Virus genome (UHGV): UHGV-0212524
Direction: 5' to 3' (one strand)
DNA length: 64,000 nucleotides
Origin: a virus
The notes beneath the pieces are model-generated. The model was not told the DNA's origin, did no database searches, and saw nothing but the letters and a program-made list of their open reading frames with translations. Positions within the stretch are counted from its first letter, which is position 1; every line of letters begins with the position of its first letter. Of the stretch, positions 10,369-64,000 are shown in pieces. The position numbers and the translations under genes were made by a program.

Positions 10369-13086
10369 TTAGAGAGTTTCATCGGTGTTGTCATCTGCGC
10401 CGGTATCCGTCTCGTCCGTGCCTTCAGTTGAAACGTCTTCTTCCGTCGTCGTATCGGTTTCCGTCGTTTCATCATCGGTCATGTCCAAGTCTTCATCACC
10501 GCCCAGATCGTCACCACCTAAGTCCTCATCGCCTCCTAAGCCACCATCGTCTTCAGTGCCGCCACCGAAGTCGCCGCCACCGCCGAAGTTATTGGCGTCT
10601 TCAGGATTCAGATCGGCTGCTTTTGCTAACGTCTGAACTTTACCTGTCGCACGTTTTGCTAACTGAATCAGCGTCTTCGATGCCGCTGCAATCTCATCAG
10701 AAATCATCTTGACGTTTTCACCACGTTTATCTTCATCGTAGATCAAATCAAACAGATCGGTTTCGATGCCCTGATTACGTAGCCAGTTGCGCGCGTAGAA
10801 GGTCTTAACCATCGTCTTGAGGTCATCAGGTGACATTTCAATACCTTCGTTCTGAAGCATATTAGCAATGTCATCCGTGACCACCAGATCTGCAAGTTTC
10901 TCGATAAATTCATAGCGTTTATCGAAGAGATCAGCTTGAGATGCTGTTGCAGAAGTATCAGGCGGTGGCAAGGTGACCTTCATACCGTTGATAAACTTCG
11001 CCATATACTCTGACGTTTGTTTTGTCATCTCTTCGCTAGATACATCCGGATTCTGCTCACGGATATACTCAACGATAATACGGATGAGTTCTGCTTGCAG
11101 TTTCGGTGAAGCTTGCAGACTGTTTGTAACGTAGCGCGTAAGCGGGGTTGAGAGGATTTCCTGTTTCTTCACAATCTGTTGAGTGACCAACAGCGATTTA
11201 GAATAAATCTGAGAAGCAAACTCCAGGTTCTCCGGGGTAAGTACAAGGTCAGGATCAACACACGCGATGTGACATGTACGGCGTAACAGGTTCTCGTCGA
11301 TTTGTTGATCAGGAACTTTATACTCCGGCGTGGTATCAGACACAGACACTTTGTGGCTGGCGTAGTAATCGTTACCCGTTACGTTAAAGGCAATCCCCGC
11401 GTTAGCCCCCATTGACCAGGCGTCGTTGATATCGCCCCACATCGGCAGGCGTCGATTGTAGGAATTAAGGATATCTGATTTAACTTGGTCAACGGTTTTT
11501 TGACCGTTTGCATCATCTGGTGACAGCTCAATGTCGTACTGCATGTGACGTGCCGAGTTCAGTACAGATGAGTTCATCGTTGCGAACAGCAGCGCCATCC
11601 TGACAGTAGAGATAATAAAGGAGCGCTCAGTAATAGAAACCCCGATACCATCTTCGTTAAAGTCGGTTGCAAAATAGCAAAGGTTATTAACCGGAATGTA
11701 AACCACCTGAGTATGACGTTTTGCGAGATGACGCGCTAACAGAATACGACCGAAAGTTTCGGTAATATTCATGCTGATTTCTGCGCCACCTAGTGCCTGA
11801 CTTAATGCGCGGGCAAATTCGTTTTCAGCGATTTCACCACAACGTGCACTTAAACGGTTGGCGATTTCCGGGGTAATACGAGAAGTGTTCCCTAAGCCCA
11901 GATTAGAACGGTTAATGATGCTGTCCGTCATCCCGTCGTTATTCAGGTAGTTCATAAAGTTCGCATCGCCGTACAGCGAGGAGCGAGCATTGATGAAGTT
12001 ACCCATGTCATCTACGATGGTCAGATAACCGATAGGGTTACGAACGTCATCGCCAATTACCAGTGGCAGCGTTGACTCTGCGGGCAGTAAACGTTCGATG
12101 TATTCGATTTTGTTATTCTCATCCATTGAGATAATAGGAATATCACCGTACGTTTGTGTTTTCGGTGTTGACTTATACGCCTCGTTTAAATCACCCAAGT
12201 TAATGAACCCTTTTTCAGCAGCGTCACGCTGACGGTCATCGAAAGATTGGTTAGGGTCGAACGGACTGCCACCGTTTGGTGTAGACGGCTTTTCATATGC
12301 GGCTTGCTCTAATTGCCCGTACAATCCCGTACGTGCGTTCTCATGCGCAATACGACGATACAAATCCGGTAGCATGGTAATGCGCGGGTTATCGGTAATC
12401 GTGATTTCCATCTGGAATTTATCCGAGAACATCGAATCGTGTTTACCGAAATCGATTTTCAACGTTTGAGGACCAGTAACGGCTCCGTGTAAACGGTTGA
12501 GAATTGATTCTACACCAACTCGCTGCCCTTCTTTCGGCGCATTAATAGGCCCGAGAATACCAAGCTGTTGTTCGAAGAACGCCGTTTGGGAACGACGAAC
12601 AGATTCAGTAGCGACCTTTGTATTCAGACCGAATAATTGGTCGAAGCCGGTATCCGAGATTATCATCACTGGACTTGCGCCTTTGGTTTTTAACGCATCG
12701 TAAATCCACTGATATAATTTCTTAGGTAGCTGACGAATGTTATCGTGATAATCACGGGTCGGTGTCAGTAGTGCGTTACGCAGATCAATGGGGATGTCCG
12801 CGATGTTGTCGTAAATCAACGTCGTGTTGATTAAGTCTTTTGTTGATAGCAGGCTCGAAGTTGCAATAGTAACGATTGTTTCGAGTTCAGGTAACGCATC
12901 AAAGATACGTTCCGCATTTTTGATAGTACGAATACGTGAACTCGCAATTGCCGTGAGTTCTTGACGTGTTGGCGTAGAACCACCCTCGCTACGCGTACCG
13001 CGTTGTTGCTGAGGTGCTGGGCCCGTAGTTTTACGAAGAATTGCAGCTACGGCGGGGTCGCCCGTTAATTTACTAATATCGTCCAT
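10369..13086 (-). CDS. large virion-associated protein candidate (possible portal), 905 aa, with acidic Gly/Asp/Thr-rich C-terminal tail
   Basis: long minus-strand ORF; C-terminal ~70 aa low-complexity acidic tail; position relative to putative capsid gene. Confidence 0.5.
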   Translation of the reverse strand: MDDISKLTGDPAVAAILRKTTGPAPQQQRGTRSEGGSTPTRQELTAIASSRIRTIKNAERIFDALPELETIVTIATSSLLSTKDLINTTLIYDNIADIPIDLRNALLTPTRDYHDNIRQLPKKLYQWIYDALKTKGASPVMIISDTGFDQLFGLNTKVATESVRRSQTAFFEQQLGILGPINAPKEGQRVGVESILNRLHGAVTGPQTLKIDFGKHDSMFSDKFQMEITITDNPRITMLPDLYRRIAHENARTGLYGQLEQAAYEKPSTPNGGSPFDPNQSFDDRQRDAAEKGFINLGDLNEAYKSTPKTQTYGDIPIISMDENNKIEYIERLLPAESTLPLVIGDDVRNPIGYLTIVDDMGNFINARSSLYGDANFMNYLNNDGMTDSIINRSNLGLGNTSRITPEIANRLSARCGEIAENEFARALSQALGGAEISMNITETFGRILLARHLAKRHTQVVYIPVNNLCYFATDFNEDGIGVSITERSFIISTVRMALLFATMNSSVLNSARHMQYDIELSPDDANGQKTVDQVKSDILNSYNRRLPMWGDINDAWSMGANAGIAFNVTGNDYYASHKVSVSDTTPEYKVPDQQIDENLLRRTCHIACVDPDLVLTPENLEFASQIYSKSLLVTQQIVKKQEILSTPLTRYVTNSLQASPKLQAELIRIIVEYIREQNPDVSSEEMTKQTSEYMAKFINGMKVTLPPPDTSATASQADLFDKRYEFIEKLADLVVTDDIANMLQNEGIEMSPDDLKTMVKTFYARNWLRNQGIETDLFDLIYDEDKRGENVKMISDEIAAASKTLIQLAKRATGKVQTLAKAADLNPEDANNFGGGGDFGGGTEDDGGLGGDEDLGGDDLGGDEDLDMTDDETTETDTTTEEDVSTEGTDETDTGADDNTDETL

Positions 13087-57843: not shown

Positions 57844-58380
57844 ATGGCTAAAACCTTCAAACTGCAGTTCGTCGAAGCTGTAATTGCTAAAAACCCAGGA
57901 ACCGCTTCTAATCTGACGGTTGATGATGTCGATTTTGGTGCTGTCGAAGCGCACAGCGGTACCGGTGGTCGTAACACCAAAATTACGCTGACCGCCAAGG
58001 CAGAAAGCCAGAACTTCAAAGGCGAGAAAGAATTCCACTACATTCGTCTGGCTTCTCAAGACCTGATCGGTGCCAAAGCTTACGAAAAAGCCGGTAGCCT
58101 CGATCTGGAAAACTCTGCCATTGTAACCAAACTGAACGAAGAAATGGTTACTAAAGGTTATGTCGATGACTATTTCGCTGAAAGCGAACTGACCATTGAG
58201 AAAACTGACGGGGATAGTGGTGCTAAAGTTTACACTGTCAAAGTAAACGATGCACACATTAAATTCCTGGCTGGTACTATTGCCACCTTCACTTATTCCA
58301 ACCCAGCTCCTGAGAAGGTAGCGCTGAGCGGTCTGGAAGGTGAACTTGATGGCTTCACTGCACCGGGTGTCGGTGGCTAA
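57844..58380 (+). CDS. paralog-family protein (178 aa), probably abundant virion protein
   Basis: optimal-codon bias; NTKITLTAKAESQNFKGEKEFHYIRL and C-terminal ELDGFTA shared with 58450..58980. Confidence 0.6.
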   Translation: MAKTFKLQFVEAVIAKNPGTASNLTVDDVDFGAVEAHSGTGGRNTKITLTAKAESQNFKGEKEFHYIRLASQDLIGAKAYEKAGSLDLENSAIVTKLNEEMVTKGYVDDYFAESELTIEKTDGDSGAKVYTVKVNDAHIKFLAGTIATFTYSNPAPEKVALSGLEGELDGFTAPGVGG

Positions 58381-58449: not shown

Positions 58450-58980
58450 ATGGCCGCTACTAACCAGATGATGTTGGTCGCGCTTTATAATGCTGCTAAC
58501 GCTGAGCTACCGCATCAGATTACAGATAAAGAAGTGTCCTTTGGTCTCCCTACTGCGCTGGAAGGCGAAAGTAAGAATACCAAAGTTACCATGACCGCAC
58601 TACCGGGTTCTGAGAATTTCAAAGGCGAAATCGAACTGCATTACGATCGTCTGGAGCCGGGTGTTGTAGGACGGATTGAACTAACTGACGATCTGTCTCG
58701 TTGGGTTCAAGAAAATGAACTCCGCGCTTGGTTACAGCTATACATCAACAAAGTAAAACCTGACGACGCTATCGCGCCAGGTGACGTTGTGTACAGCACC
58801 GAAGACCAGAAAGACGAACATGAAAACGTCACTCTGCGTACCGTGACATGCACCGTTACTGAACAGAACCTCCGTTATAAACCGGGTGTAATGGCAACTT
58901 TCGTAATTACACCGAAGGTAGTCGATAATCGTATTGACCTGGCCACCACCGACGGTGAATTGGACGGTTTTACTGCTTAA
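58450..58980 (+). CDS. paralog-family protein (176 aa), paralog of 57844..58380
   Basis: NTKVTMTALPGSENFKGEIELHYDRL and C-terminal ELDGFTA. Confidence 0.6.
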   Translation: MAATNQMMLVALYNAANAELPHQITDKEVSFGLPTALEGESKNTKVTMTALPGSENFKGEIELHYDRLEPGVVGRIELTDDLSRWVQENELRAWLQLYINKVKPDDAIAPGDVVYSTEDQKDEHENVTLRTVTCTVTEQNLRYKPGVMATFVITPKVVDNRIDLATTDGELDGFTA

Positions 58981-59000: not shown

Positions 59001-59052
59001 ACAAAAAATAATAAGTTTACCTACCTCCTTTACGGAGGTAGGTATTTTTTAT
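59001..59052. terminator. bidirectional terminator marking the boundary of the reverse-strand island
   Basis: TACCTACCTCC-TTTAC-GGAGGTAGGTA hairpin with A-tract upstream and T-tract downstream. Confidence 0.8.
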
Positions 59053-59723
59053 TCTAATCCCATTTCCAGCGCAAGTGCACGGATCGTGTCGTAGTCACGC
59101 TGTTCGGCGTACTGACGAATTTCACTTTTCTGGGCAGACATCGCGTTGTGTAGCTGTTGGTCACGTTTCACAATAGCCGCCATTAACGCTTTACATTGCT
59201 CCAGCGTAAACGGTTCTATACGTGTATTCGACGTGTCCAGCCAATAATCCGGTGCAGTTTCAGACTGGATATATTGACCCAGCATCTGACGAGAGGTTTC
59301 ATCCGCTTGGAAATGATGGCCGTCAACTTCGATATAACCGTGACGCTGGTCTTCGTATCGGTGTTCAATTTCCAACATGATTTTCTGGATATCTAAATAG
59401 ATATAGCGAGACGTCGAGCGCATATTCGAACGAATCTCGTCCAGGTTAATCTCCAGAACGTCAGTAATGAATTCTTTTGCTTTGTTCAGTGTAAACTTCG
59501 CCTCAATAGGAGACATTTCGTAAGTTTGCATCTGAGCTAAAGCTTCTTCATCACTCATCCCTTCAATCAACTTATAGTGCAGTAATGCACAGAACCCCGT
59601 ACGACCACGGTCTTCGTTACCTACACGTTCCATGTAGTTACCGTGGCGGTCAATTGGCAGATCGTGCGCGAAATAACGCGCCCGAATCTCTTCTTTCGTT
59701 AAGCTTTTGTTAGAAGCAGACAT
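59049..59723 (-). CDS. hypothetical protein (224 aa), last gene of the radical-SAM island
   Basis: minus-strand ORF co-oriented with the radical SAM genes. Confidence 0.5.
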   Translation of the reverse strand: MSASNKSLTKEEIRARYFAHDLPIDRHGNYMERVGNEDRGRTGFCALLHYKLIEGMSDEEALAQMQTYEMSPIEAKFTLNKAKEFITDVLEINLDEIRSNMRSTSRYIYLDIQKIMLEIEHRYEDQRHGYIEVDGHHFQADETSRQMLGQYIQSETAPDYWLDTSNTRIEPFTLEQCKALMAAIVKRDQQLHNAMSAQKSEIRQYAEQRDYDTIRALALEMGLE

Positions 59724-60265
59724 TCTTCTTCTCCAACCATACCTAATTCTTGCAGCAAGCCAAAATCAACCAACTGGAAGGTTTCAGAGAGATCGTTTGA
59801 CCACACCACGTTTGCAATGTCGCGTTCTTCATCCGTTAACTGTGGTAACACATTTTCGTTGAACGTCTGATGCTCTACGTAATAAGCATCGTAGATAGAC
59901 GTAGAACGCAAGCAACGGATTGGCAGACGCGGGAAAGACACCGCTAATGCAGCAATAGATGCGCTACTCGGATTCTCCGCAGAATAACGAAGCAATTCGA
60001 TCTTGTGGCGTGGGTAATCCAGTACGCGTTGTTCGAAACCCGGATTACGTTTTTCGATTTCCACAACGGACTCATGGCCTGTCTCTGTACAGTAAACGGG
60101 AATCATCACGTTTAGCCCGTACTTAATCAACAGAGGTTTAATCTCATCTGTAAAGTCTTCACCAGGGATAATGGCGTGAACGTTATAGAGTTTGTGTTTG
60201 CGCAGAAAACGCTCAACCAGGTGGAGTTTACGCTTCGTAAAATTGTGGATCAGAATTGATTTCAT
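59699..60265 (-). CDS. hypothetical protein (about 188 aa)
   Basis: minus-strand ORF; ATG at 60265 preferred (GAGG RBS) over 60289. Confidence 0.5.
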   Translation of the reverse strand: MKSILIHNFTKRKLHLVERFLRKHKLYNVHAIIPGEDFTDEIKPLLIKYGLNVMIPVYCTETGHESVVEIEKRNPGFEQRVLDYPRHKIELLRYSAENPSSASIAALAVSFPRLPIRCLRSTSIYDAYYVEHQTFNENVLPQLTDEERDIANVVWSNDLSETFQLVDFGLLQELGMVGEEECLLLTKA

Positions 60266-61562
60266 TATTTGCCTCAGTAGGTTGTGCATTTAACGCACGT
60301 TTAGCTTGCTCACGCTCACGCGTACATTTCGGACAGTAACAAACAGACGAATCGTGCAGTGACGATGCGTGGACGGTGCCTGTACGTTGACGCCAGTATT
60401 CTGCCGCCATCAGTTTTGCGGTCGTCCAACCACATTGACGTCGTTCAGCGTGGTACGCCTTACGGTCTTCCAGTGTCCCTTCACCGTTTTCGTAGGAAGC
60501 AGCTGCACAGCTCCCACAACCGTGTTTCATCGGACAACCTAAGCACGTTTCAGGATAGTTGGTGTATTGCGTCTGAATCTCTTCCAGCAGTTTCCCGCCG
60601 TCTAAGCTAACAAACTCACGACCGACTAACTCAAACACCGCAGAGCGTGACGTTACCGTTGACATGAATCGGTTACAACCATACACCTTACGGTCAAAAC
60701 CTAAACAAGTCATAAACGTCAACGTCCCACAGAACGGACGTAAACGTTCAGGGTTATAACGGTGCGTGTCGTCGTACAGCAGTTTATCACGCCAATCTGG
60801 GTCCCAAATCTGACGGAAATCCAGACCTTCAGGAATGATGTGGGACAACACGTTACGTGGATTGGTGTGCAGCCCTTTCTCAATCCAATAATCCATCACC
60901 TCGATCATCTGCAACGCAATATCCGTTGCCATGCTCCGTGGAAGGATATCTTCGTACGTCACGTTACCCGAAATCGTACCACCACCCGCAATATCGATTA
61001 ACGACTTCATACTCGCCGCGTAATGCGGGAGGGTTTCGGTTGTAAAGGTTGCCTTGATACCCAGTTCAGCAATACCCACTTCTTTTAAGTAGTTATAGCC
61101 ACGAACAGCGGCTTCGTAAGAACCCTGACGCGTCGTGGTAAAGATACGATAACGGTCATGGACTTCTGGCAGCCCGTCGATAGACACACCGATGGAGAGT
61201 TTGTCTTTCCAACGCTCGACGATCTCACGGTTTAACGGACGGTCTAACAACGTCCCGTTCGTGGAGATACTGAACATATACGGTCGATTATGCTCCTTAC
61301 ACAACTGTTCTGCGGTTTCAAACGCCGCTAACAGCAGTTTCGGTTGCATAAAAGGTTCGCCGCCGATGATATCAATAATGACGTCGATGTTCGGAATATC
61401 TTTATCACGCTCAAAACAGGCGTGTAAGAAATCCACGATATCCGCCGCTTTGTTATTACGCGGATACTTACGTTCGTAACAATACTCACAGTCTAAGTTA
61501 CAAGACAGGTTCGTTACCACCTGGTAAGTACGTTGTGAACGTGGTGCTTCATTATTGCTCAT
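60228..61562 (-). CDS. radical SAM enzyme with C-terminal SPASM-like Cys cluster (444 aa), peptide maturase candidate (ScfB/anSME-like)
   Basis: N-terminal CNLDCEYC (CxxxCxxC), IIGGEPFMQ (GGEP), C-terminal TCLGCPMKHGCGSC plus further Cys (QCGW, VCYCPKC). Confidence 0.8.
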   Translation of the reverse strand: MSNNEAPRSQRTYQVVTNLSCNLDCEYCYERKYPRNNKAADIVDFLHACFERDKDIPNIDVIIDIIGGEPFMQPKLLLAAFETAEQLCKEHNRPYMFSISTNGTLLDRPLNREIVERWKDKLSIGVSIDGLPEVHDRYRIFTTTRQGSYEAAVRGYNYLKEVGIAELGIKATFTTETLPHYAASMKSLIDIAGGGTISGNVTYEDILPRSMATDIALQMIEVMDYWIEKGLHTNPRNVLSHIIPEGLDFRQIWDPDWRDKLLYDDTHRYNPERLRPFCGTLTFMTCLGFDRKVYGCNRFMSTVTSRSAVFELVGREFVSLDGGKLLEEIQTQYTNYPETCLGCPMKHGCGSCAAASYENGEGTLEDRKAYHAERRQCGWTTAKLMAAEYWRQRTGTVHASSLHDSSVCYCPKCTREREQAKRALNAQPTEANNEINSDPQFYEA

Positions 61563-62469
61563 CTTTGCTTATCCTTTTACGCTCTGCATAAATCACGCGT
61601 TTAATGTACTCGTAAGCACCTACCCCGATAGAGCAAGCAAGCTGATTGCACCCACCGTTTAAGATAGCCGGTGCATTCTGAAGCTGATGTTCTGTTCCAT
61701 CTGCGTTCAAATACAACTCTTCGCTACAGACATTACACTCGTTTTCGAAAATCTTGCTGACAGACACGCCGCACGATTCTCCGGTTTGGACGTTCAGCCG
61801 TTCCATATTCTCCTGAATCTTTAAATAACCATAAACGAAGTTCATGATGTGATCGGGAGACAACGGTTTTGGCATTTGGGCATCAAACATCAGAGAAAAC
61901 GCACGGGGACGATAGTGGTACATCGCACGATGTAAATCCACAATATCTTCATACCAGCGCTTATCGGCTAACTGGTCACGCGTAATCACAGCCCAGGTTT
62001 GGAAGTTATCGAGTTCGTATAACGCTTCCAGTGCTTCGTGGCTATCCTCTTCAATAAAGCGCATAAAAGGGCGCTCAGAACGTTTGTAGCCATCAATTGA
62101 TACAAACACATGCTCAAAGTCTTTTAGCAGCGTAAGATGCGATTTACGCAGTTTTAAGCCGTTGGTATACAAGTGATGCTCAAGGTGCGGATGAGACACT
62201 TTCAGTTCGTTAACGAAATCCTCAATCTTACGTTGGACGAGTAGCGGTTCACCACCCGTCCAATGTATTTCCTTAATAGCTGGATTCTCTTGTAGTAATT
62301 CCAGGATACGTTCGCGTTGAAAAGCACGAGACGAATCTTCACGATTCATGTAGTAGGCTCCACCGCAGAAACTACAGTCTAGGTTACACTTAGACGTCGT
62401 AACTACGGACAATATAGTGGGTTTATCGTACAACTTCGTCGAGATCCTGGATTCCACATTGTCTATCAT
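61552..62469 (-). CDS. second radical SAM enzyme (305 aa) with C-terminal auxiliary Cys cluster
   Basis: KCNLDCSFCGG (CxxxCxxC), IHWTGGEPLLV (GGEP), C-terminal CGVSVS..ECNVCSE..GGCNQLACSIG. Confidence 0.75.
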   Translation of the reverse strand: MIDNVESRISTKLYDKPTILSVVTTSKCNLDCSFCGGAYYMNREDSSRAFQRERILELLQENPAIKEIHWTGGEPLLVQRKIEDFVNELKVSHPHLEHHLYTNGLKLRKSHLTLLKDFEHVFVSIDGYKRSERPFMRFIEEDSHEALEALYELDNFQTWAVITRDQLADKRWYEDIVDLHRAMYHYRPRAFSLMFDAQMPKPLSPDHIMNFVYGYLKIQENMERLNVQTGESCGVSVSKIFENECNVCSEELYLNADGTEHQLQNAPAILNGGCNQLACSIGVGAYEYIKRVIYAERKRISKDEQ

Positions 62470-62489
62470 TGCAGGTTGCTCCAGTATTT

Positions 62490-63377
62490 TTAAATATAAT
62501 CGATGGCGAATAAAGGATCTTCGTCGAAGTTAACACCGGGTTTTAAAATCAGTGGCGAATTATACGCTTCCAGTAAACGGTTAAGTTCGTTGTAGCGGCT
62601 ATTCATCCGTTTGAGGTCTTCTAAGGTCACAACACGGTCAAGCATCGGCTTAACTGCTTCGGCTTCTTCGTCAGTCAGTTTAACTTTCGACAGCAAGAAG
62701 CTGACGAGTTTGGAAATGTCCGCTTCGGTAGCTGGGCTCTGACCAAAACGTACCTGAACCATATGCTGCATCCACGGTTTACGAATGCGTTTCGTAATCA
62801 CGTGTTCGTCAGTGATGGCTTTCCAAACCGAACGTTCACGAATCCATTCGAACTTATAGCTGTACGCCATTAAGTCGGCCAGATGCGTAATTCCGAGTTC
62901 TTGATAGCCTTCAATATCGATATACGGTTCCGTATCAAAATACTCTTTGGTATCTTTTTCAACCAACGCGTAATAGTTAGGGAACGCACCCAGGTAGTCT
63001 GGACTCCACCAACGACGGGCCATTGGTTTAGCATCGAGTTCTTCAAACGGTGTGAACATAAGTTCTAAGTCAACTGTATTATTTAACACACCGTCGCTAA
63101 AGAAATATTTACCGTCGATAAGTTTACCGCGTTGTGAGTTGTCACCGGTAAAGACAACGATGCTTTCGCCAACCATATCACGAATTTTGAACGTATTCTC
63201 AACCGTAAAGTTGTCACGATTAGCGATATGACGACCACGCACTTTCGGCCATTCCCCAGGAATCATGGCAATTAAGCGTACATCATCAGCAAGATGGTGA
63301 CGTACCGAATCAGGGGAAGAGATGTGAAGTGGATGATTGAACGTTGTCGTATATGCAAGATGTAGATCGTTCTTCAT
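62490..63377 (-). CDS. hypothetical protein (295 aa) between the precursor genes and the radical SAM genes
   Basis: minus-strand ORF in the island; no recognisable motif. Confidence 0.55.
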   Translation of the reverse strand: MKNDLHLAYTTTFNHPLHISSPDSVRHHLADDVRLIAMIPGEWPKVRGRHIANRDNFTVENTFKIRDMVGESIVVFTGDNSQRGKLIDGKYFFSDGVLNNTVDLELMFTPFEELDAKPMARRWWSPDYLGAFPNYYALVEKDTKEYFDTEPYIDIEGYQELGITHLADLMAYSYKFEWIRERSVWKAITDEHVITKRIRKPWMQHMVQVRFGQSPATEADISKLVSFLLSKVKLTDEEAEAVKPMLDRVVTLEDLKRMNSRYNELNRLLEAYNSPLILKPGVNFDEDPLFAIDYI

Positions 63378-63498
63378 TGATTACTCCAATTATTTCACGG
63401 GTAGTATCTTTAGCGTCTAGCTCAGACCCAACATAAACAGCAGCTTTGTTATCAAGGATGGTTTCGAAGGGCTTGGTATGGAACCACCACCAGAAGAC

Positions 63499-63708
63499 TT
63501 ACCTGCCTCCCCCTGCACCTTTACTACAGCTACCACTGCACGCCCAGCTACAACTCCCATTACAGTTATAGTGAGTTAACGGTAATCCTGCCAAGTTATT
63601 CGTTGAGGACACCGTACCCTGATTAGCAATATAGTTATTCGCATCTGTGGTTTTAATGTAGCCTTCAACCTGACCGATTCTGTCTCGAATATTTTTGAGG
63701 GAAATCAC
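63499..63708 (-). CDS. Cys-rich small ORF (69 aa), RiPP precursor candidate
   Basis: GTG start with strong GGAGGT RBS; 46-aa Cys-free leader then C-terminal core HYNCNGSCSWACSGSCSKGAGGGR with C-x3-C spacing. Confidence 0.5.
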   Translation of the reverse strand: MISLKNIRDRIGQVEGYIKTTDANNYIANQGTVSSTNNLAGLPLTHYNCNGSCSWACSGSCSKGAGGGR

Positions 63709-63718
63709 TTCTCACCTC

Positions 63719-64000
63719 CTATCGTCCTGTGCACGACGAGCAGCCACCGGTACAGCTACTGGAGCACGATGCTGTACAGCCGCCCGTACAAGTGCCCGAG
63801 CACGCATTAGCGCACCCACCCGAACAACTCCCCGAACACCCTGAACAGCTACTTGAACACCCTGACGTACAGTTTGCAGAGCATGAAGAACCGCAACCAC
63901 CAGACGCGTTCCCTGTACAGCCACCAGAGCAACTCGAGCAGGTAAAGGAACACGTGCCCGCACAGTCATAATGCGCACGATTCCGACCACCGAACAGGTC
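63719..64000 (-). CDS. Cys-rich repetitive ORF (5' end beyond the window), second precursor candidate
   Basis: hand translation of the minus strand gives ..DLFGGRNRAHYDCAGTCSFTCSSCSGGCTGNASGGCGSSCSANCTSGCSSSCSGCSGSCSGGCANACSGTCTGGCTASCSSSCTGGCSSCTGR-stop; shares HY(N/D)CxGxCS(W/F)xCS and GR-stop with the 69-aa ORF; frame absent from the supplied ORF track. Confidence 0.45.
   Translation of the reverse strand, partial: DLFGGRNRAHYDCAGTCSFTCSSCSGGCTGNASGGCGSSCSANCTSGCSSSCSGCSGSCSGGCANACSGTCTGGCTASCSSSCTGGCSSCTGR

Follow-up and report, generated by a model that had tools for sequence, protein, structure and literature searches.

The last 5 kb (positions 59,001 to 64,000) of a 64,000-nucleotide stretch of viral DNA (UHGV virus genome UHGV-0212524; the whole stretch is hereafter the window) carry a minus-strand island in which genes for two radical S-adenosylmethionine (SAM) enzymes follow genes for small cysteine-rich proteins (Table 1). 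All the co-oriented open reading frames (ORFs) that an earlier note on this DNA had described are present. That note had counted two tandem cysteine-rich ORFs: the one running past the window end does hold 20 cysteines, whereas the other has 4, and a third, larger paralogue lies outside the window; we name the three pepA, pepB and pepC in order of transcription. Overlaps of 11-38 nt join the four successive genes from the second radical SAM enzyme to the DUF4376 protein (11 nt between the two enzymes), an arrangement as in a translationally coupled operon. The 188-residue gene among them can also be read from 60289 (59699-60289, 196 residues), with homologues beginning at the second methionine. 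Downstream of this string the bidirectional terminator of the earlier note is found as a hairpin with T-runs on both sides, which looks like the element closing the module against the convergent plus-strand genes. A sigma-70 promoter scan returned 9 sites against 11.4 expected by chance, i.e. no excess; phages of this type encode their own RNA polymerases, which makes such a scan uninformative.

The 5-kb region shares ~74% DNA identity with Salmonella phage SPN3US, Erwinia phage pEa_SNUABM_29 and their relatives, the best nucleotide match of the module in the phage collection being ~74% over most of its length, and a 100% identical copy of the 444-residue enzyme lies on Salmonella enterica assembly contigs of up to 226 kb. 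These matches indicate that the window derives from a jumbo phage of the SPN3US-like (Seoulvirus) type; the island corresponds to genes 161-166 of SPN3US.

Table 1. Features of the minus-strand island and its downstream boundary, in window coordinates
Feature	Position	Strand	Remarks
pepB, C-terminal 93 residues and stop	63719..64000	-	truncated by the window end; stop at 63719-63721
pepC, 69 aa	63499..63708	-	short paralogue, 4 Cys, phrog_6085
Accessory protein, 295 aa, SPN3US gp165 homologue	62490..63377	-	
Second radical SAM enzyme, 305 aa	61552..62469	-	Pfam Radical_SAM
Radical SAM/SPASM maturase, 444 aa	60228..61562	-	Pfam Radical_SAM, SPASM-like Cys pattern
188-aa protein	59699..60265	-	predicted radical-SAM-like fold without CxxxCxxC
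DUF4376 protein, 224 aa	59049..59723	-	final gene of the overlapping string
Hairpin, bidirectional-terminator-like	59018..59044		11-bp stem, T-runs on both strands, between convergent genes

We compared the pep genes in seven genomes from five genera, namely the window phage, SPN3US and pEa_SNUABM_29 (Seoulvirus-type), phiEaH2 (Erskinevirus), Machina (Machinavirus), Kwan (Wellingtonvirus) and CR5 (Derbicusvirus). In each of these three tandem paralogues occupy the same site, every gene with its own Shine-Dalgarno sequence: pepA encodes 127-130 residues, always with 21 cysteines, pepB 130-142 residues with 20-23 cysteines and pepC 68-69 residues with 2-4 cysteines. Full-length pepB (131 residues; 7073-7468 in L014) and pepA (130 residues) lie just past the point corresponding to the window end in the near-identical phages L013-L015. 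All three proteins begin with a conserved region of ~50 residues that runs into a junction motif of the form ..NxADLxGG...hYxCxGxCSWxCS, and in pepA and pepB this junction leads into ~20 Cys-x-x-x repeats built from Cys, Ser, Gly and Thr. Consecutive cysteines of the window pepB fragment are separated by 3 residues in 15 instances, by 2 in three and by 7 in one, and its 78-residue core consists only of C, S, G, T, A and N apart from one F. The cores of both pepA and pepB contain no Asp or Glu, and Lys and Arg are almost entirely missing from them. The window pepC, which has a GTG start behind an AGGAGG Shine-Dalgarno sequence, retains the N-terminal region and the junction of its paralogues (HYNCNGSCSW) together with just its 4 cysteines.

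The cysteine columns (21 in pepA, 20 in pepB) are invariant among the orthologues of the five genera, and pairwise codon differences at these columns are confined to the third position, as TGT/TGC exchanges, in 145 of 145 cases in pepA and 190 of 190 in pepB; codon differences across the pep genes as a whole also fall mostly at third positions. This pattern shows that the cysteine frame is the coding frame under selection and, together with the Shine-Dalgarno sequence of each gene, argues that it is translated, a point which the earlier note had left in doubt. The pepB fragment and pepC both match phrog_6085 (3.5e-24 and 1.6e-25, respectively). Against the CXXX-repeat target model TIGR04114, an 18-residue repeat with a cut-off of 20 bits, the pepB fragment scores 20.9 bits, SPN3US pepA 19.6 and L014 pepA 19.5, and full-length L014 pepB has no match at E <= 0.001. 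Among the GenBank records examined the Cys-repeat genes are mostly missing or called in another frame or strand, and they are right only in Machina (gp175-177); they are miscalled or unannotated in SPN3US (gp166; L001 10216-11332), CR5 (CR5_157), Kwan (gp183, gp184), pEa_SNUABM_29 (00267, 00268) and phiEaH2 (gp087, gp088). In the SPN3US sequence (L001) pepA corresponds to 10878-11276, pepB to 10463-10864 and pepC to an ORF of 68 residues. This misannotation probably explains why pepA, pepB and pepC escaped notice.

Both enzymes that the earlier note had taken for radical SAM proteins match Pfam Radical_SAM (PF04055; cut-off 29.5 bits), the 444-residue protein at 53.3 bits (4.7e-14) and the 305-residue protein at 55.8 bits (8.3e-15). 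The cluster motif CNLDCEYC of the former (C21, C25 and C28) is conserved in its homologues. The SPASM pattern consists of 7-8 C-terminal cysteines in the spacing Cx9-15Gx4C ... Cx2Cx5Cx3C ... C, which hold two auxiliary 4Fe-4S clusters; the C-terminus of the 444-residue protein reads CLGFDRKVYGC ... Cx2Cx5Cx2C ... C, and in an alignment of 16 homologues down to 27% identity C296, C340, C343, C349, C352 and C377 are invariant while C278 and C286 are at least 90% conserved. By these eight cysteines the protein belongs to the SPASM type, as the earlier note had supposed, with the caveats that no SPASM Pfam model matches at E <= 0.1 and that the last spacing is x2 and not x3. In a search with the family profile its closest solved structure is the thioether synthase CteB (5wgg, E 4.6e-36), followed by anSME. 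The alignment spans the radical SAM core and the SPASM region and begins only at CteB residue 104, from which it follows that the 444-residue enzyme is without the N-terminal RiPP recognition element (RRE; RiPP, ribosomally synthesized and post-translationally modified peptide). Its best NCBIfam match is the CXXX-repeat maturase family TIGR04115 (124.8 bits, 5.6e-36; cut-off 350) and its second best PapB, NF047865 (110.8 bits, 7.5e-32; cut-off 340). The distance of the TIGR04115 score from its cut-off places the window enzyme in a sister clade. Relatives of the enzyme occur in 71 phage records, 63 of them matching over at least 80% of its length.

The 305-residue enzyme has a conserved CNLDCSFC motif and three conserved C-terminal cysteines, which possibly hold an auxiliary cluster. 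Its best NCBIfam matches are a tungsten-cofactor maturase, MoaA, HxsC and QueE, all far below their cut-offs, and it fits no named radical SAM subfamily of that collection. The 295-residue accessory protein has a new fold and travels with the enzymes; neither it nor the 196-residue reading of the next-to-last gene matches any Pfam or NCBIfam family. The 188-residue form of the latter is confined to the jumbo-phage clade, its predicted fold resembling a radical SAM core from which the CxxxCxxC motif is absent. The 224-residue protein matches DUF4376 (5.8e-11) and no other Pfam or NCBIfam family, and is further matched by phrog_8169 and, more weakly, by the tail/tail-fibre PHROGs 2837 and 1807. 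Searches with Pfam, NCBIfam and the maturase profile recognised no RRE, leader peptidase or exporter/transporter in the module, which thus differs from a classical RiPP cluster.

The distant relatives of the maturase (31-40% identity) are found in the tail modules of prophages and phages and not in natural-product clusters. In a P2-like prophage of Campylobacter pinnipediorum the genes run baseplate W, J and I, a 384-residue tail fibre, a 250-residue protein, the radical SAM/SPASM enzyme, a further radical SAM enzyme, DUF1353, sheath and tube. This fibre matches Pfam Phage_tail_fib and tail-fibre PHROGs down to 1e-55, and itself carries a CxxxC tail (...FDGSEDIYITMGCNGCSGSCSGSCSSGCTACSGCSGSCSGK...). 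A prophage of Deferribacter abyssi likewise has a Cys-tailed fibre followed by a 250-residue protein, a radical SAM enzyme and a radical SAM/SPASM enzyme; the fibre, of 302 residues with HxH repeats and 29 cysteines in the protein, ends in KATNADQLGGQAGSYYRCSDCSWTCSSSCTGSC..., and its end KATNADQLGGQAGSYYRCSDCSWTCSSSC... is the same junction as that of pepB. Indeed, a junction of the form KATNxADxLxGGxxxxhYxCxxxCSWTCSS is common to pepB, pepC and the fibre relatives, and recurs in the IMG/VR locus L027. The 250-residue proteins of both prophages are homologous to the 295-residue accessory protein (BLASTP 6e-12 for Deferribacter, 0.002 for the other), and further homologues adjoin the maturase in L019, L024, L026 and L027. 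In the IMG/VR loci L024, L026 and L027 a tail fibre with a Cys tail and the accessory homologue stand together beside the maturase; L027 has two separate radical SAM genes, L026 a single one of 686 residues, and in L024 just one was detected. The two enzymes appear to be fused in P0102 (634 residues with two Radical_SAM matches) and probably in the L026 protein. The Cys-tailed proteins of L017, L024 and L026 match many "tail fiber protein" PHROGs (1e-27 to 1e-55), that of L027 matches a few tail/tail-fibre PHROGs more weakly (~1e-6 to 1e-10), and the C-termini of those of L026, L027 and L016 match phrog_6085, the family of pepA, pepB and pepC themselves. Hence, the same repeat that is encoded by separate small genes in the jumbo phages forms part of the fibre polypeptide elsewhere.

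Some loci of this group depart from this plan. L019 (GCA_964490815.1, 1291-7436) encodes a T7-type tail-fibre-like protein, the accessory homologue and both radical SAM enzymes, and no Cys-repeat ORF was found in it, so that either its substrate is a different one or a short ORF was missed. In L020 (112-1392) and L021 (2604-4955) fibre-like proteins with AxKLxxxRxI...FDGSxNIxI repeats end in Cys/Asp-rich tails, GGCSDCSDCSDYCSDDHC and GCSCDANCNCDTYCGCDTYCWSDCSCD, and are immediately followed by a SPASM-type maturase. These tails are a Cys-Asp variant reminiscent of PapB substrates; PapB acts on repeated C-x3-D motifs, from which it forms a row of small thioether rings.

In the jumbo clade the gene order is conserved as gp168-like, gp167-like, pepA/B/C, the 295-residue protein, the radical SAM enzyme, the radical SAM/SPASM enzyme, the ~190-residue protein and DUF4376, and in all jumbo genera examined the module stands directly downstream of, and co-oriented with, the gp168 and gp167 homologues. 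In SPN3US, gp168 belongs to the tail and is related to phiKZ gp131, a protein of the baseplate periphery, and gp167 is listed in the SPN3US virion table, with no count in the column in which the tail proteins gp168-170 are also blank (PMC5105663). The gp167 homologue of the window-type phage contains a long coiled coil. Between the gp167 homologue and pepA, just past the window end (~6606-6670 in L014), stands a stem-loop with a T-run behind it; both elements are kept in 6 of 6 full-length genomes aligned, with differing stem sequences.

A scan of IMG/VR recovered 210 relatives of the maturase, from which 80 loci were kept. Of these 80 loci, 73 have a Cys-repeat ORF no more than 2.5 kb from the maturase, always in the same orientation, 63 times upstream and 10 times downstream, and the density of such ORFs is 0.204/kb near the maturase against 0.005/kb elsewhere in the loci, a ~40-fold difference. 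The same scan finds just one Cys-repeat ORF in the entire window. In the more distant loci (22-28% identity) two maturases were scored against TIGR04115, giving 455 bits (L039) and 308 bits (L029); by these scores L039 is a canonical and L029, just short of the cut-off, a near-canonical member of the CXXX family. In the substrates of the distant loci an N-domain of ~105 residues is conserved, and the cysteines number up to 126. Among 117 neighbouring genes of 24 such loci, nearly all of the annotated families within the 25 most frequent PHROGs are tail-fibre, tail-collar-fibre, tail, baseplate or virion structural families. Thus, the "CXXX-repeat" systems of the databases may largely be phage tail modules. 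The phage contigs L028-L101, many of which come from one metagenome, encode CxxxC-repeat proteins of 125-830 residues (e.g. L055 4982-6550, L039 5921-6592) beside maturases that score at or close to the TIGR04115 cut-off; the L039 and L029 maturases, too, have Cys-repeat proteins as neighbours.

The pairing of a radical SAM/SPASM maturase with a Cys-rich repeat target is of a known kind, and a comparison with the characterized or named systems shows that: 1) The CXXX system (TIGR04114/TIGR04115), which the NCBIfam names pair as target and maturase, shares with the window the Cys-x-x-x periodicity and a maturase that starts directly at the radical SAM core, without an RRE. The window clade differs from it in having the 250-295-residue accessory protein and usually a second radical SAM enzyme, both of which the canonical viral loci lack, and in substrates with a distinct junction motif that are either fibre C-termini or three short stand-alone proteins. 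2) PapB, the maturase of the ranthipeptide freyrasin, is the second-best family and offers a suitable model of how a periodic Cys repeat could be processed iteratively. However, the window enzyme falls far short of its model, has no RRE and belongs to a phage structural gene block, and the pepA and pepB cores offer no Asp/Glu acceptor. 3) CteB, the SCIFF maturase (PDB 5wgg, 5why), aligns over the core and the SPASM region, acts on a Cys-rich substrate and forms thioethers; unlike it, the window enzyme is missing the N-terminal RRE-containing region, and the window substrates are not SCIFF-like. 4) The HxsB/HxsC pair (TIGR03978, TIGR03977) also combines a SPASM enzyme and a smaller radical SAM enzyme beside a short-period repeat substrate, and HxsB is matched by the 444-residue protein (7.5e-21) and HxsC by the 305-residue protein (1.3e-12). 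These matches, nevertheless, reach 74 bits against a cut-off of 370 and 47 against 268, and the repeat in the window is Cys-x-x-x and not His-x-Ser. The CXXX families, whose definition is a bioinformatic one, are said to have been first described by Haft and Basu in 2011, and we know of no published chemistry or biology for these NCBIfam entries.

Several other identities were tried for the enzymes. The SCIFF/ScfB assignment offered in the earlier note does not hold, since TIGR03974 gives 55.5 bits against a cut-off of 425 and no Cys-rich ORF matches the SCIFF precursor models, such as the six-Cys-in-45 model TIGR03973, at E <= 1. The anaerobic ribonucleotide reductase activase and QueE, subfamilies of the kind which that note had named as a way in which its reading could fail, as well as MoaA and viperin, all remain far below their curated cut-offs.

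The adjacency of enzymes and substrates, the kinship of the maturase with thioether-forming SPASM enzymes, the fibre fusions, the tail context and the lack of an RRE, peptidase and exporter together argue that the system belongs to the tail-fibre module. Hence, we propose, with slightly better than an even chance of being right, that it performs radical-SAM cross-linking of tail-fibre tip proteins and that the island makes up the 3' portion of a block of tail-fibre genes. In the mechanism that we infer, the 444-residue enzyme would act on the pep proteins, using 5'-deoxyadenosyl radical chemistry to build covalent cross-links from the cysteines of the repeats; such links would most probably be sactionine- or ranthionine-type thioethers within one molecule. 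The 305-residue enzyme would assist it, and the 295-residue protein would substitute for the missing RRE as the substrate-presenting partner. The product would be a redox-insensitive, protease-resistant Cys-ladder domain formed in the reducing cytoplasm. Disulfides cannot form in that compartment, where the tails assemble, whereas thioethers can, which provides a plausible rationale for such chemistry. The modified pepA, pepB and pepC would be kept intact, with neither leader removal nor export, and be incorporated in or on the tail fibres as distal tips, which would match the related phages, whose fibre protein has this Cys-repeat module as its own C-terminal tail. More generally, and with less confidence, falling somewhat short of an even chance, phages may use RiPP-type radical SAM chemistry on their own structural proteins, making a thioether-stapled "cysteine ladder" at the fibre tips; P2-like, lambda-like and gut phages would carry it fused to the fibre as a C-terminal tail, and SPN3US-like jumbo phages in the form of three separate tip proteins.

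Several observations weigh against this proposal. SPASM enzymes are also known to yield C-C cross-links, formylglycine and other products, and the 444-residue maturase scores below the curated cut-off of every named family. A phmmer search with pepC against 1.84 billion representatives detected no fibre homology for its N-terminal 50 residues, returning only small pepC-like proteins and spurious leucine-rich-repeat matches (GMPLTHLxC). The conserved terminator-like hairpin between the gp167 homologue and pepA could, as a terminator or attenuator, uncouple the expression of pepA/B/C from that of the tail genes before them. Further, the virion Table S4 of SPN3US includes gp155, gp160 and gp167-171 and none of gp161-166 (PMC5105663). 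The virion proteomics could not have identified pepA, pepB and pepC, since the SPN3US annotation omits them or puts them in the wrong frame, and cores that are free of Lys and Arg and cross-linked would escape tryptic analysis; tryptic peptides of the SPN3US pepA leader are VQIVEANMATGPR, IDAQVASK and AHNAADR. Lastly, the jumbo-clade substrates are separate small proteins (69-131 residues) whose conserved ~50-residue, leader-like N-terminus precedes a Cys-rich core, which is also the architecture of RiPP precursors.

That architecture, the place of the maturase in the SPASM peptide-maturase group and the absence of gp161-166 from the virion table would all suit a free RiPP, in which pepA, pepB and pepC are leader-core precursors and the cross-linked cores are freed at lysis, or through cleavage by a protease of the host, to serve as toxin, signal or anti-competitor peptide. 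We consider this improbable, given that the module has no recognisable RRE, leader peptidase or exporter and lies inside a tail-gene block in every genus examined, that tail fibres of other phages contain the repeat and junction within their own polypeptide, and that the related viral loci are neighboured by tail and baseplate genes. Of the RiPP system announced in the earlier note, what stands is thus an enzyme of the SPASM peptide-maturase type, homologous to CteB, beside Cys-rich substrates, and what finds no support is the classical free peptide; among the products which that note listed, a crosslinked virion component fits best with the tail-gene block and the fibre fusions. A still less probable alternative is that the Cys-repeat proteins, or the module as a whole, act only in fibre assembly and stay out of the virion, for instance as a template or chaperone for gp167/gp168. 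In P2-like phages a fibre assembly chaperone gene normally lies between the tail-fibre and sheath genes, which is where the Campylobacter module sits, and DUF1353 proteins, labelled "tail assembly chaperone" in RefSeq, occur nearby in several loci; the lack of gp161-166 in the virion mass spectrometry table would be expected in this case too. However, virions could lack a fibre-fused repeat only if it were cut away, for which no protease is evident, and the strict conservation of 20-21 cysteines suggests a defined final structure.

Finally, the Cys repeats might not be a substrate at all but bind metal or form disulfides, in the manner of metallothioneins or Cys-rich beta-helices, while the enzymes modify another tail protein, a sugar or a nucleotide. 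The C/S/G/T composition of the cores may resemble that of metal-binding or Cys-ladder proteins, the nearest matches of the 305-residue enzyme, although below cut-off, are of the cofactor type (tungsten-cofactor maturase, MoaA, QueE), and our assignment of the repeats to the enzymes depends on chemistry that we still infer. We regard this as the least probable of the alternatives, since Cys-repeat genes are enriched 40-fold beside this maturase clade, all of them co-oriented, the nearest families and solved structure are peptide maturases acting on Cys-rich peptides, and NCBIfam itself pairs the TIGR04114 target with the TIGR04115 maturase.

Literature searches found no publication describing this module. 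Three of its aspects appear to be new, namely the three conserved and mostly mis-annotated substrates of SPN3US-like jumbo phages, the sister clade defined by a novel accessory protein and usually also a second radical SAM enzyme, and the consistent embedding in phage tail-fibre modules with the repeat fused to fibres. For the SPN3US-like jumbo phage genomes examined, the comparison also provides a corrected annotation of three conserved genes. Should tail-fibre cross-linking prove true, virion or receptor-binding domains that are cross-linked enzymatically would form a class not recognised before, and the orphan "CXXX-repeat" radical SAM systems would largely be phage tail modules and not natural-product clusters. 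For RiPP enzymology tail-fibre cross-linking would supply the orphan CXXX maturases and their sister clade with a biological role and a tractable model, SPN3US having amber-mutant genetics, as well as an example in which ~20 repeats of a substrate the size of a protein are processed iteratively, the place of the RRE being taken by a new accessory protein. In phage biology, tail-fibre maturation would gain a step of covalent cross-linking by enzymes, which would explain how a Cys-rich domain can be stable in the reducing cytoplasm, and attention would turn to a so far unassigned component of the fibre tip with a possible bearing on host range, on the stability of particles in the gut and on the engineering of receptor-binding proteins.

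Two variable features lie within 63378-63520 of the window (~7690-8185 in L013-L015). The 3' end of pepC contains a poly-G run whose length varies among near-identical phages, altering the C-terminus of the protein (...KGAGGGR as opposed to ...KGAGGGGGGK). The spacer between pepC and the gene for the 295-residue protein is a variable insertion site, being ~0.1 kb long in the window and ~0.5 kb in L013 and L014, where an extra ORF is called at 129-169 residues, and having a different sequence in L015. On the plus strand, 57844-58380 and 58450-58980 encode tandem DUF7941 paralogues that both end in GELDGFTA, and gp160 lies at the equivalent position in SPN3US. This protein is abundant in the SPN3US virion: each of the four columns of Table S4 gives counts for it, the column blank for tail proteins among them (PMC5105663), which suggests a head-associated protein encoded amid tail and lysis genes.

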